A model generated the notes under the pieces. That model did not search any database. It saw only the letters and a list, made by a program, of their open reading frames with translations, and was not told the DNA's origin. Of a stretch of 5,329 bases of DNA, positions 1 through 5,329 are shown in pieces. A program made the translations under genes and the position numbers. Source of the DNA: a virus (Duplodnaviria > Heunggongvirae > Uroviricota > Caudoviricetes); IMG/VR virus record IMGVR_UViG_2529292735_000011; one strand, 5' to 3'. Within the stretch, counting starts at the first letter, position 1, and the number at the start of each line of letters is the position of its first letter.

Positions 1-116
1 TGAGCGGCAATATCACGCACAGCGGCGGCAATTTCACCTCAAACGGCATTACCGTGCATACGCATAAACACGGTGGCGTGAAAGGTGGCAGCGATTCGAC
101 AGGAGGCCCGCGGTGA
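1..116 (+). CDS. V: Baseplate central spike protein gpV, C-terminal fragment (5' end lies outside the window)
   Basis: Frame starting at nt 3 reads ...SGNITHSGGNFTSNGITVHTHKHGGVKGGSDSTGGPR and stops at TGA 114-116. This matches my recollection of the P2 gpV C-terminus, and it directly precedes a gpW-like ORF in P2 gene order. The stop overlaps the next start (GTGA). Confidence 0.75.
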   Translation, partial: SGNITHSGGNFTSNGITVHTHKHGGVKGGSDSTGGPR

Positions 117-463
117 CAACCCGCTACACAGGAATGAACCCGGACGGAACGGGAAACCTGAACGATATGGAGCACCTGAAACAGTCAGTCAGGGACATCC
201 TGACCACCCCGCTGGCAAGCCGGGTTATGCGACGGGAATATGGCAGCCTTGTGCCTGATTTGATTGACGAACCCATGAATAACACCACGCGTCTGCAATG
301 CATGAGTGCTGCCGTGATTGCACTGGCACGATGGGAACCCCGCATTGCCCTGGATGCCATCGACGTTGTCTGGAAAGCGGGAGGCCGCGCCGGGGTGACG
401 CTGTCGGGCACTGTCATGCAGACCATGCAGAATGTTGAATTAACCATCACGCTGAGGGAGTAA
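113..463 (+). CDS. W: Baseplate wedge protein gpW (T4 gp25-like)
   Basis: 116-aa ORF with a GTG start at 113, preceded by AGGAGG at 101-106 at good spacing. Size and sequence (TTRYTGMN...SRVMRREYGSL...) resemble P2 gpW. Position between V and J fits P2 synteny. Confidence 0.85.
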   Translation: MTTRYTGMNPDGTGNLNDMEHLKQSVRDILTTPLASRVMRREYGSLVPDLIDEPMNNTTRLQCMSAAVIALARWEPRIALDAIDVVWKAGGRAGVTLSGTVMQTMQNVELTITLRE

Positions 464-466
464 ATC

Positions 467-1362
467 ATGCCCGCCGTTGACCTTTCACAGTTACCGGAAC
501 CCGCCATCATCGCGGAGCCTGACTTTGAGGCAATTCTGGCTGACACAAAGGCCATGATGATTGCGTCCTATCCTGCCGAACAGCGTGAAGCCGTTTCCGC
601 CGCGCTGGAGCTGGAATCGGAACCCCTGAACGTTATCGCTCAACCATGTCGTTTCGTGAAATGCTGTTACGCCAGCGGGTTAACGAGGGCGCACGCGCCT
701 GCATGTTAAGCCACAGCGCCGGGACAGACCTGGACAACCTCGCGGGAAATATGAACACAAAGCGCCTGGTTATCACTCCGGCAACGGATACCACCGACGC
801 GGTGATGGAGAGCGACACCTCGCTGAGACTGCGGGCGCAGCGGGCGTATGACGGCCTGAGTGTTGCTGGCCCGTCAGGTGCATACGAGTATTTTGCCCGC
901 AGCGCCAGCGGTCTGGTGCGTGATGCGCGGGCTATCAGTCCGTCTCCGGCAAATGTGACGGTTTCCATCCTGTCCACTGAGGGCGACGGCACAGCAACGG
1001 AGGCGTTGCTTAATACCGTTCGCGCCGTTCTGAATGCAGAGGACACCCGCCCGGTGGCCGACCGCCTGACCGTACAGAGCGCCAGAATCGTGACATGGCG
1101 GCTGAATGCAAAACTGTACTTTTACCCCGGCCCGGAATCCGAACCTATTCTGGCCGCGGCAGAATCGTCATTCAGGAAGTGGCTGGCTGAACAGGGGCTT
1201 ATCGGTCAGGACGTGGCGTTGTCCGCCATTGCTGCCGCACTGCATGTGCACGGTGTGCAACGCGTGGAGATAATCGAACCCACACAGAATATGGCCATCA
1301 GCGACATACAGGCAGCGCGCTGTGAGTCATTCACCATCAGTGAAGGTGGGCGCAATGAGTAA
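467..1362 (+). pseudogene. J: Baseplate protein gpJ (T4 gp6-like), interrupted by a -1 frameshift near 641-646 (pseudogene or sequencing indel)
   Basis: ATG at 467 follows the W stop by 3 nt. The N-terminal part, 467..~643, reads MPAVDLSQLPEP...ESEPLNVIAQ and then runs to a stop at 707-709. The homology continues in the -1 frame as (T)MSFREMLLRQRVNEGARA... in the ORF 646..1362. Joined across the shift the product is about the length of P2 gpJ and is collinear with it. The stop at 1360-1362 overlaps the I start (ATGAGTAA). Confidence 0.75.
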
Positions 1363-1886
1363 TTCACTGTTACCACCATCAGCCAGCAATTTCATGCGTT
1401 GTGCCGAAGCCGTCGGAACACGCATTACAGACATTCCGGTCGACCTCAACACGCTGTGGTCGCCGGACACCTGCCCGGTGCACCTGCTGCCTTATCTCGC
1501 CTGGGCGTTTTCCGTTGACCGCTGGGATCGCAACTGGCCGGAAGAGACAAAGCGACAGGTGATTCGTGATGCATGGCTGATACACCGACACAAAGGGACC
1601 ATCAGCGCACTGCGCAGGGCCATTGAGCCGCTGGGATACCTCATTCGCGTGTCTGAGTGGTGGGAGTTCGGCGGAGAACCGGGAACATTTACCGTTGAAG
1701 TCGGCACGCTGGACAGTGGCGTGACGGAGGAAATGTATCTGGAAATGGAGCGGTTGATTGCTGATGCCCGCCCGGTCAGCCGCCACACTGACAGGGCTGA
1801 ATATCATTCAGGAGATCCCGGGGGATATTTTCGCGGCGGCAGCAACTTACGACGGTGAAGTCATTACCATTTATCCGGACGATTAA
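1355..1886 (+). pseudogene. I: Baseplate protein gpI, probable +1 frameshift near 1784-1790 (contiguous ORF reads 1355..1858; homologous C-terminus continues in another frame to 1886)
   Basis: ATG at 1355 overlaps the J stop. The translation MSNSLLPPSASNF...LLPYLAWAFSVDRWD...HKGTISALRRAIEPLGYLI...EMERLIADARPVSRH matches gpI. After ...SRH the annotated frame gives an unrelated tail and stops at 1856-1858. The frame shifted by one reads LTGLNIIQEIPGDIFAAAATYDGEVITIYPDD and stops at 1884-1886, 2 nt before the H start; this resembles my recollection of the P2 gpI C-terminus. Confidence 0.6.
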
Positions 1887-2432
1887 GCATGAGTACCACA
1901 ACACGAAAATTTAAAACCATTATCACTGATACTGGTGCCAAAAAATTAGCTCAGGCTGCCGCGCCAGATGGTAATCCTGTCCGCCTGACTCATATGGCCG
2001 TGGGCGACGGTGGCGGCACGTTGCCCACACCAGACAGTAAGCAGACCCGTCTGGTGCATGAGGTGTGGCGACATACTGTTAATCGCGTCATCCTGGACGC
2101 AACACATCAGAACCGCATTATTGCGGAGCTGGTTATTCCTCCTGAAACGGGCGGATTCTGGATCCGGGAAATTGGTGTATTTGATGAGCACGGCGATTTG
2201 ATCGCGGTGGGCAATACTGCCGAAAGTTACAAACCAACCGTTGCCGAAGGATCCGGACGTGCACAAACATTTCGCACCATTCTGACCGTATCCAGCACTG
2301 CCACCGTGGCGCTTACCGTGGATAACACCATGGTGATGGCCACAGTGGATTACGTGGATGACAAACTGAAAGAGCATGAACAGTCACGACGTCACCCGGA
2401 CGCCTCGCTGACCGCAAAAGGCTTTTGTTCAA

Positions 2433-2910
2433 CTCAGTAGCGCCACTAACAGCGTGTCTGAAACGCAGGCTGCAACGCCGAAAGCAGTAAAGGCCGCGTA
2501 TGATCTTGCTAACGGGAAATATACTGCGCAGGATGCCACCACAGCGCGAAAAGGCCTTGTCCAGCTCAGTAGCGCCACCAACAGCGATTCTGAAACGCTG
2601 GCGGCAACACCAATGGCGGTAAAGGCAGCATATGACCTTGCTAACGGGAAATATACTGCGCAGGATGCCACCACAGCGCGGAAAGGCCTTGTCCAGCTCA
2701 GTAGCGCCACCAACAGCACGTCTGAAGCACTGGCCGCAACACCGAAAGCGGTAAAGACAGCATATGACCTTGCTAACGGGAAATATACCGCTCAGGACGC
2801 TACGACAGCACAAAAAGGGATTGTCCAGCTAAGCAGCGCGACTAACAGCACATCTGAAACGCTTGCCGCGACACCGAAAGCAGTGAAAGCAGCTAATGAC
2901 AATGCGAATG
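2433..2910 (+). repeat. In-frame 132-bp tandem repeat inside H (about 3.5 copies, 44-aa unit [44 protein letters not shown])
   Basis: Unit starts at 2433, 2565, 2697 and 2829, all exactly 132 nt apart. The first three copies are near-identical at nucleotide level; the fourth diverges after about 60-80 nt. The repeat also generates the spurious antisense ORFs 2313..2813 and 2429..2719. Confidence 0.9.
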
Positions 2911-3668
2911 GTCGGGTACCTTCTGCCCGTAAGGTGAATGGTAAGGCGCTTTCAGCGGATATTACACTGACGCCGAAAGATATTGGTACGCTTAACTCAA
3001 CAACTATGTCATTCAGCGGTGGTGCTGGTTGGTTCAAATTAGCAACGGTAACCATGCCGCAGGCGAGTTCTGTTGTTTCAATTACGTTGATTGGTGGCGC
3101 GGGATTTAACGTGGAGTCACCTCAACAGGCAGGTATATCTGAACTTGTTCTTCGTGCGGGAAATGGAAATCCAAAAGGTCTTACTGGTGCGTTATGGCGA
3201 CGGACATCGGTTGGATTTACTAATTTTGCATGGGTGAATACATCCGGTGATACCTATGATGTTTATGTTGAAATAGGTAATTACGCCACAGGTGTTAATA
3301 TTCAATGGGATTATACCAGTAACGCCAGCGTAACGATTCATACTTCACCAGCATATTCTGCTAATAAGCCGGAAGGATTAACGGACGGTTCTGTTTATTC
3401 GCTGTATATTTCGCCTCATGAACTTTATCCGGTTGGCGCACCGATCCCTTGGCCATCAGATACCGTTCCGTCTGGTTATGCCCTGATGCAGGGGCAGACT
3501 TTTGACAAATCTGCATACCCGAAACTTGCAGTCGCTTATCCGTCAGGCGTGATCCCTGATATGCGTGGCTGGACTATCAAGGGCAAACCTGCCAGTGGTC
3601 GTGCCGTATTGTCTCAGGAACAGGACGGCATTAAATCGCACACCCACAGCGCCAGCGCATCCAGTACT

Positions 3669-3758
3669 GATTTGGGGACGAAAACCACATCGTCGTTTGA
3701 TTACGGTACTAAAACGACCAGTTCATTTGATTACGGCACAAAAACCACAAATAGCGCA
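3669..3758 (+). repeat. Three tandem 30-nt / 10-aa units in the H distal region ([10 protein letters not shown] / [10 protein letters not shown] / [10 protein letters not shown])
   Basis: Read directly from the translation and nucleotides. The copies differ at synonymous positions, so this is an older protein-level repeat rather than a recent duplication. Confidence 0.55.
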
Positions 3759-4036
3759 GGAGCTCATTCACACAATATACCTGTTGGTCACACTGGCGCG
3801 GGGAATGGTGTATCAGCCGGTTATAACGCTGCGTTAGGTACTGGTACCACGTCGAGCGCAGGAGGGCATGCTCACAATGTATATATCGGTGCCCATAACC
3901 ACACTATCGGCATTGGTGCTCATGCCCATTCTGTCATTATTGGTCCCCACGGACACACCATCACCGTTAATGCTACGGGGAACGCAGAAAACACCGTAAA
4001 AAACATCGCATTTAACTATATTGTGAGGCTTGCATA

Positions 4037-4615
4037 ATGACATTCAGAATGAGTGAACAATCACGGACCATAAAAATTTATAATCTACTGACCGGAACCA
4101 ATGAGTTTATTGGTGAAGGTGATGCACACATTCCACCTCATACAGGTCTGCCTGCAAACAGTACCGATATTGCCCCGCCAGATATTCCGGCTGGCTTCGT
4201 GGCCGTTTTCAACAGTGATGAGGCATCGTGGCATCTCGTTGAAGACCATCGGGGTAAAACGGTTTATGACGTGGCATCAGGGGACTCGTTATTTATTTCT
4301 GAACTCGGTCCATTACCGGAAAATGTTACCTGGTTGTCGCCGTATGGAGAGTATCAAAAGTGGAACGGCACATCCTGGGTGAAAGATGCAGAAGCAGAAA
4401 AACTGTTTCGGATAAGGGAGGCGGAAGAAACAAAAAACAGCCTGATGCAGGTAGCCAGCGAGCATATTGCGCCACTTCAGGATGCCGTAGATTTGGATAT
4501 TGCAACGGAGGAAGAGGCATCGTTACTGGCTGCATGGAAGACATACCGGGTATTGTTGAATCGTGTTAATACAGCGGTAGCAGCGGAAGTTGAGTGGCCA
4601 GTCGCCCCACAATAA
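4037..4615 (+). CDS. tfa: Tail fibre assembly chaperone (lambda Tfa-like, with a P2 gpG-like C-terminal end)
   Basis: 192-aa ORF whose ATG overlaps the H stop (TAATG), with GTGAGG upstream. The sequence [54 protein letters not shown]... is very close to my recollection of lambda Tfa. The C-terminal ...[26 protein letters not shown] resembles the conserved end of P2 gpG. It sits immediately downstream of the fibre gene, as cognate chaperones do. Confidence 0.85.
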
Positions 4616-4621
4616 AGAGAA

Positions 4622-4651
4622 AAAGCCATCGATTGAAATATAGATGGCTTT
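4622..4651. terminator. Bidirectional rho-independent terminator between the convergent tfa and acetyltransferase genes
   Basis: Perfect 9-bp inverted repeat AAAGCCATC (4622-4630) / GATGGCTTT (4643-4651) around a 12-nt loop, with a GC core GCCATC/GATGGC. On the minus strand the stem is followed by TTTTTCTCTTTATT; on the plus strand by TTTATGT. It lies in the 43-bp gap between the two stop codons (4615 and 4659). Confidence 0.6.
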
Positions 4652-4658
4652 ATGTACT

Positions 4659-5231
4659 CTATTTATACAATACAACACCGCTCTTTTTAGTTATATATGT
4701 GCAGTTCGATGGTATATCTTTATTTATAAAAGACATTGCACCTATTTTTACATTATCCCCAATTTTACGTGATAATCCAATGATGCAACAATTAGCTCCG
4801 ATATCAACGTTACTACCAATTTTTACTCTTGAACCAGGCATGTCACCATCTATCTGCCCAATGGTAGTATTCTGCCGTAACACCAGATTTTCACCAGCAT
4901 CAACAGCAAAATGAACAACAATTCCAGCATGATGGGGAATTGTTAACCCTTTTCCAATATTTGCGCCCAATCCAATTTCACAACCAAATTTGTTAATTAT
5001 TTTATTGTTTAACTTTTTGGCTGCTGTCTTATGTAATTTATTACCATTAATATACATTTCGTTAGCCAACCGCCACCAGAAAAGGAAATTCCGGTTACGC
5101 TGTTTTTTCTCTCTTAAAAGCCTCCAGATATCCATACGTTTCCGCCGAATTACTTCATATTTCCAGAAGTTTTTTAAATTAGTAGAGTTCCCAAATAAAA
5201 CAAAGTGAATTGCCATTAAGTAAGACAGCAC
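4659..5231 (-). CDS. Hexapeptide-repeat (left-handed beta-helix) O-acetyltransferase, WcaB / serine acetyltransferase (CysE) family-like; AT-rich cargo gene
   Basis: Minus-strand ORF with stop TAG at 4659-4661. The six-frame track extends it to 5264, but the best start is the GTG at 5231-5229, which lies 6 nt after a strong SD AAGGAG (5243-5238). An ATG at 5216 is an alternative. The core ...GCEIGLGANIGKGLTIPHHAGIVVHFAVDAGENLVLRQNTTIGQ...VKIGSNVDIGANCCIIG...IGDNVKIGAMSFINKDIP has the [LIV]-G-x-x-x-x hexapeptide periodicity and the I-x-H-H-x-G-I-V-V motif of the CysE/WcaB/NodL transferase family. It is visibly AT-rich with A/T-rich codons, unlike the upstream phage genes. Confidence 0.75.
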   Translation of the reverse strand: MLSYLMAIHFVLFGNSTNLKNFWKYEVIRRKRMDIWRLLREKKQRNRNFLFWWRLANEMYINGNKLHKTAAKKLNNKIINKFGCEIGLGANIGKGLTIPHHAGIVVHFAVDAGENLVLRQNTTIGQIDGDMPGSRVKIGSNVDIGANCCIIGLSRKIGDNVKIGAMSFINKDIPSNCTYITKKSGVVLYK

Positions 5232-5282
5232 GATAATCTCCTTAATTATTATTTCAGACCACACATGTTATAAGGTTAAGAG

Positions 5283-5311
5283 ATTATAAAATCCTGTTGT
5301 TTGTTATTCAA
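5283..5311 (-). promoter_or_regulatory. Candidate sigma70 promoter for the acetyltransferase gene
   Basis: On the minus strand: TTGAAT (plus-strand 5311-5306), a 17-nt spacer, then consensus TATAAT (5288-5283), about 50 nt upstream of the GTG at 5231. AT-rich DNA produces such hexamers by chance, so this is sequence-only support. Confidence 0.45.
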
Positions 5312-5329
5312 AAACAATTTTCTGAGAAG

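Follow-up and report, generated by a model that had tools for sequence, protein, structure and literature searches.

The question raised by this locus is why the gene for baseplate protein J appears in two reading frames, and whether the break belongs to the DNA of the strain or to its sequence record. The window analysed here, 5,329 bp in length, is the complete contig AIHM01000016.1 of the draft WGS assembly of Escherichia coli DEC14C (GCA_000250455.2, 2012), and the protein record EHX95791.1 carries the strain name [Escherichia coli DEC14C]. A table in PMC5592225 gives the DEC drafts with adjoining accession prefixes and with Hazen et al. 2012 as their origin.

Gene content of the contig

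The window is the tail/baseplate module (the end of V, followed by W, J, I, H, G and an acetyltransferase gene) of a P2-like prophage of the P88/Xuanwuvirus type in the Peduoviridae. The gene order V-W-J-I-H-G is the same as that in annotated relatives, and the features are listed in Table 1.

Table 1. Features of the 5,329-bp contig AIHM01000016.1.
Feature	Position	Strand	Evidence
V, 3' end	1-116		
W, gpW/gp25-like baseplate wedge gene, intact, 116 aa	113..463	+	ORF; GPW/gp25 annotation in relatives; Pfam PF04965
J, whole gene as deposited, frame-broken	467-1362	+	
J, conserved N-terminal part, codons 1-59 (M...IAQ), original frame	467..643	+	Residues match 1-59 of the unbroken J of relatives
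Lesion, one-base deletion, A2 against A3 in all relatives (CAAACC to CAACC)	642..643	+	Alignments
Out-of-frame tail of the 80-aa ORF (PCRFVKCCYASGLTRAHAPAC, then TAA 707-709)	644..709	+	Direct reading; ORF list
Rest of J, T60 to E298 and stop, -1 frame	643..1362	+	Pfam Baseplate_J, 70.5 bits; collinearity with PA0618
I, gpI-like tail protein gene, broken by an extra C at 1788	1355..1886	+	Alignments; 167-aa truncated product
H, gpH-like tail fibre gene, broken by an extra T in the run 2420-2423	1889..4037	+	Alignments; 183-aa N-terminal product
G, gpG/Tfa-like tail fibre assembly gene, intact, 192 aa	4037..4615	+	ORF list
Acetyltransferase-like cargo gene, intact, 190 aa, low-GC stretch	4659..5231	-	ORF; annotated as serine acetyltransferase in relatives

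The N-terminal third of H includes a 132-bp tandem repeat (3.7 copies, 84% matches, window 2416-2900) that codes for repeated units of 44 aa, and the extra T at 2423 falls right where this array begins. The C-terminal part of H (positions 3681-3750 and 3850-3990) contains a 30-bp repeat coding for 10-residue units, followed by several His-x-His motifs, which we take to resemble the metal-binding motifs of phage fibre tips.

An identical 192-aa G protein appears in 585 blocks of the collection. Wholly within the 3' part of G, a full-length match to the Rfam family IS009 (RF02111) was found at 4380-4578 (+), scoring 192 bits where the gathering score is 117; IS009 may be an sRNA candidate whose family was built from prophage tfa sequence.

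At 4620-5329 the GC content falls to 0.36-0.41, from 0.54-0.62 upstream. The reverse-strand acetyltransferase-like gene in this region occupies the interval from G to the tail gene U of the relatives, in which it is annotated as encoding a serine acetyltransferase or an LbetaH-domain protein, and it resembles a cargo ('moron') gene.

A single-base deletion splits the J reading frame

Positions 638-648 of the window read GCT CAA CCA TG, as compared with GCT CAA ACC ATG in relatives. The ORF that begins at ATG 467 passes through GCT 638-640 and CAA 641-643; beyond these codons it is out of frame, and it ends at TAA 707-709 (80 aa, 467..709), while the J-like continuation lies in the -1 frame, running from ACC 643-645 and ATG 646-648 to 1362 (238-aa ORF, 646..1362). 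Direct reading and the ORF list agree on this point with the first-pass annotation of the contig, which had followed the upstream frame through CAA 641-643 and unrelated sequence to the stop at 707-709, and had resumed J at the ACC/ATG of 643-648 in the -1 frame. That annotation attributed the break to one nucleotide missing from the caacc stretch, and the relatives indeed read CAAACC, with one gap in the alignment. When the window was aligned with both E. coli C11 and phage P88, the only gap at the site separates CTCAAACC in the relatives from CTC-AACC in the window. Likewise, each full-length match to window 440-1400 among those listed (30 E. coli rows and 13 of 13 phage records) spans 962 bases, as compared with 961 in the query.

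As one A is absent from the CAAACC run, the J ORF is split into 59 and 239 codons, and the deposited J is not the single uninterrupted ORF of ~298 codons, its frame being broken after codon 59. The conserved N-terminal 59 codons are followed by 21 out-of-frame codons and the downstream ORF encodes 238 aa, so the earlier estimate of fragments of about 60 and 238 aa was right. The gene caller set the start of downstream J at ATG 703, which leaves 219 aa; since this ATG overlaps the upstream stop (ATGTTAA), the region is called as an 80-aa and a 219-aa gene. When one A is put back, a 298-aa ORF is obtained, whose product matches the J protein of the nearest relative (L006, see below) at 100% identity. 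The arrangement is thus not a chance pattern.

J is a member of the baseplate J/gp47 family

The Pfam family PF04865 (Baseplate_J) was matched by the repaired J with 69.8 bits and by the 238-aa fragment with 70.5 bits, against a cut-off of 21.1, which places both in the family. The 219-aa product is listed under PF26776, PF26078 and PF26079, and no Pfam match was found for the 80-aa product. Residues 4-297 of the repaired J are collinear with residues 3-294 of PA0618 (PDB 6u5b, E 7e-75), and the alignment is ungapped at the junction (ELESEPLNVIAQTMSFREMLLRQRVNE in J, EVESDPVLKLLQLAAYRELLLRARIND in PA0618). The gene is a typical representative of the baseplate J/gp47 family (P2 gpJ type), the ORF of which is interrupted by a one-base gap in this record. 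The naming of the split gene as baseplate J in the first-pass annotation is supported by the same collinearity, and the check it put forward, an alignment of both frames with J homologues, gave one gap only, the repaired J being continuous against the relatives and PA0618.

An uninterrupted J of 298 aa was present in each intact relative inspected. At the DNA level, the J region shares 97.6-98.1% identity with genes annotated as 'baseplate assembly protein' in ~1,000 complete E. coli genomes; for 13 phage records, most of them from Peduoviridae of the P88/Xuanwuvirus type, the range is 95.9-97.7%. In the phage collection, one location accounts for 80% or more of J in 487 of 549 records, and each row among the matches listed is one tblastn piece; phages bearing J include Escherichia phage Wphi (a P2 relative), phiCTX, and phages of Burkholderia, Vibrio and Microcystis.

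Distribution of the J deletion

A 75-base query across the site failed to find the deletion in any of ~1,006 records of complete E. coli genomes, where the best match was 75/76 and gapped. A 19-mer across the deletion had no match in species-representative genomes, and its single matches in a metagenome collection and in a viral collection have unrelated flanks and were dismissed as chance. The gene-position index gave no true match to the deletion, nor did the collections of viral, metagenome and species-representative genomes. The 80-aa product occurs in one contig only, the window's own, in an index of 153 billion genes. A search for sibling genomes sharing its rare W variant yielded only a diverged metagenome scaffold, with J and I intact.

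The presence of the 219-aa product in 10 other contigs hinted at a recurrent or inherited frameshift. This candidate was rejected, as the breaks in those contigs lie elsewhere and CAACC is found in none; the J genes there are frameshifted at other positions, run into an N-gap or a contig end, or carry a large deletion. The window-equivalent positions of other J breaks include a change from G5 to G4 near 690, loss of a C near 697 and gain of a C near 672. The G5-to-G4 loss is common to three of the assemblies (L020, L024 and L026), an identical C insertion is present in SRR9432728 and SRR9432729, and a C deletion is present in SRR6148342. STK56581.1, the second member of the 80-aa cluster, does not carry the same lesion either, as its C loss is 10-12 bases further downstream and its frame shifts after TMSF, not after AQ. 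As genuine J frameshifts occur at other positions in other assemblies, and two of these recur in at least two runs, natural inactivation of J is not rare.

Independent disruptions of J at window-equivalent positions 650-700 were noted in L018, L020, L021, L023, L024 and L026, in which they lead to the same 219-aa downstream call.

Two further indels in I and H

Against E. coli A1, the best complete genome (97.1% identity over the whole window), the alignment has exactly three gap columns, which correspond to the deletion in J and to one insertion each in I and H. In gene I, a C is inserted at 1788, changing CCACA-TGAC to CCACACTGAC, and in gene H a T is inserted at 2423 (run 2420-2423), changing GGCTTTG to GGCTTTTG. 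Three single-base indels thus fall within 1.8 kb, each breaking one of the consecutive tail genes J, I and H. Their contexts are A3 in J, T3 in H and a non-run position in I. Both the truncated I product (167 aa) and the truncated N-terminal product of H (183 aa) are on record in this contig only. Removal of the extra C gives a 176-aa I, and removal of the extra T a 715-aa H, each identical to its counterpart in L006.

Comparison with the nearest relative

The nearest relative, L006 (GCA_017735875.1), was reached through the intact G protein and is 99.4% identical to the window. The two differ by 28 substitutions, all within 80-1080, together with the three indels, and over the 4,249 bases of 1081-5329 there are two indels and no substitution. 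After the three-base repair all ORFs are intact, and I, H and G are identical in nucleotide sequence to those of L006. None of the 16 runs of at least 5 bases in the window differs from L006.

Within J there are 24 nucleotide differences from L006, every one of them synonymous (24 of 24), which indicates that purifying selection acted on the J frame both before and after the break point. The window was further assessed for pseudogene decay. No sign of relaxed constraint was found, as there is no nonsynonymous change in J and no substitution in 1081-5329 relative to L006, and no sign of inheritance was found, as none of the three lesions is present in related genomes.

The 24 synonymous differences cluster at 595-1080 of the window (L006:6560-7046), and the next 4.25 kb are base-identical save for the indels. 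The cluster resembles the patch left by ordinary recombination between co-circulating J alleles.

Origin of the indels

Two explanations would make the split J functional. In one, programmed -1 ribosomal frameshifting or transcriptional slippage rebuilds full-length J from the two frames, and a -1 shift exactly at CAA/ACC would indeed recreate the ancestral ...IAQTMSF.... However, no X XXY YYZ heptamer is present in any frame at 561-720, where the longest run is C4; the predicted fold of 644-730 (87 nt) has -28 kcal/mol, as compared with a shuffle mean of -27.7 (z -0.08); and an Rfam scan placed no element at the J site. The site differs from the in-frame version by the loss of a base and shows no recoding signal, J is in one frame in each intact relative inspected, and the two-frame CAACC arrangement occurs in none. 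Lacking a slippery heptamer, a long run, structure or conservation across ~1,006 E. coli records and the phage matches listed, recoding at J was rejected, and its probability is regarded as negligible. In the other, a small upstream ORF and a shorter J starting at Met 646 or Met 703 form a genuine two-gene architecture, which was the arrangement that the first-pass annotation had named as capable of overturning its reading. Both ATG codons exist and ATG 703 overlaps the upstream stop, but both are ordinary internal Met codons of a single ORF in all relatives, no AGGAGG-like ribosome-binding sequence precedes 646, the break interrupts conserved sequence for which the alignment with the single-chain PA0618 is ungapped, and other split J genes break at different positions. 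Given that the 487 of 549 phage records hold J at one place and that the listed rows are single pieces, a conserved upstream ORF with an internally initiated J was not found in the relatives inspected or in the phage matches listed. A conserved split J gene was rejected on the grounds of single-ORF relatives, the single chain of PA0618 and single-piece phage matches, and it too is considered hardly conceivable.

The remaining explanations concern a genuine loss of function and an error in the record. In the latter, which is rated as likely, the one-base indels in J, I and H are errors of draft sequencing or assembly and not DNA of the strain. The deposited J would have dropped one A of the A3 run, with a frame shift after codon 59, the indels in J, I (1788) and H (2423) would have arisen in the draft sequence or its assembly, and the prophage in the cell would encode intact J, I and H. 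This rating follows from the confinement of the lesions to one short contig of a 2012 draft, their indel-only pattern, the frameshifts in other DEC drafts and the gaps in L020; the lesions are also perfectly repairable, as expected of an artefact. In E. coli in general the indel rate is lower than the substitution rate, and even in mismatch-repair-deficient mutation-accumulation lines indels make up ~14-19% of events (PMC11973482). By our own arithmetic on Table 1 of that paper, the chance of three out of three events being indels is at most ~0.007. As natural mutation consists mostly of substitutions, three indels without a substitution are improbable as genuine decay. Unexplained frameshifts in cas genes have been described in three other DEC drafts, where the authors regard sequencing or assembly error as possible (PMC5592225). 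A draft contig carrying the same prophage type, L020 from E. coli P0304777.12 (GCA_000358225.2, AQAI01000034.1, 1-7096), has ~20 one-base gaps in 7.1 kb, and the Logan assemblies L018 and L021, also of this type, have as few as 2. L020 further contains many fused or truncated phage genes and is recorded in 3 samples, and it represents either a very error-prone draft or a heavily decayed prophage. Classic pyrosequencing errors concentrate in long homopolymers, and a counterpoint to a technical cause is that the three indel sites are not long homopolymers. If instead the deletion is real, the DEC14C prophage would have become defective very recently, with J, I and H as frameshifted pseudogenes and no building of baseplate or tail. 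The lesions are, after all, present in the sequence as deposited, J is broken in other assemblies, some of the breaks being common to related samples (SRR9432728/SRR9432729; L020/L024/L026), a clearly decayed prophage remnant (L019) exists, and defective P2-like prophages are common in E. coli. However, slippage hot spots need longer runs than A3 or T3, none of the three lesions has been inherited by another genome, and three independent indels are set against zero substitutions in 4.25 kb relative to L006, with every J change synonymous. Neutral decay is expected to be rich in substitutions, which is the opposite of the pattern observed (PMC11973482). A real inactivation is accordingly viewed as unlikely, though it retains some weight. 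That all three indels are real, with J, I and H of an otherwise pristine prophage lost by an indel-only burst or by selection to disarm the tail module, without substitutions, is judged highly improbable.

If the lesions were real, they would add one more defective P2-like prophage and nothing beyond. Under the technical origin favoured here, EHX95791.1, EHX95792.1 and EHX95794.1 are probably artefact fragments that pollute protein databases. It would be wrong to see in the split J, I and H of AIHM01000016.1 a recoding site, a family of truncated proteins or a novel gene architecture, and nothing suggests any new biology at the J break.

Comparison with known systems

P2-like phages use a programmed -1 frameshift in the tail chaperone genes E/E', with a slippery sequence that is conserved across the group. 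The J break resembles it in belonging to the same phage group and in the -1 relation between the frames. However, E/E', which lies outside the window, has a conserved slippery site, whereas the J site has neither a slippery sequence nor conservation.

The drafts of DEC9A (cas3, cse1), DEC9E (cas3) and DEC10D (cas3) derive from the same collection and sequencing project as the contig studied here and carry isolated frameshifts in conserved genes (PMC5592225), though these are other genes in other strains and hold no evidence on the J site itself.

PA0618 (Tri1a), the J-type baseplate protein of an R-type pyocin (PDB 6u5b/6u5k), is collinear with the repaired J; as a distant Pseudomonas homologue, it serves solely to place the break inside a continuous folded chain. 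The closest counterpart is the P88-type J of Xuanwuvirus (phage P88 YP_009113080.1, E. coli WP_001111955.1), to which the window is 97.6-98.1% identical in DNA across J and the adjoining sequence and whose V-W-J-I-H-G order it shares. The window differs from it by the loss of one A from the CAAACC run and by the resulting split ORF, which no relative has, and with that base restored the J protein shows 99.3% identity to its counterpart in Xuanwuvirus P884B11.
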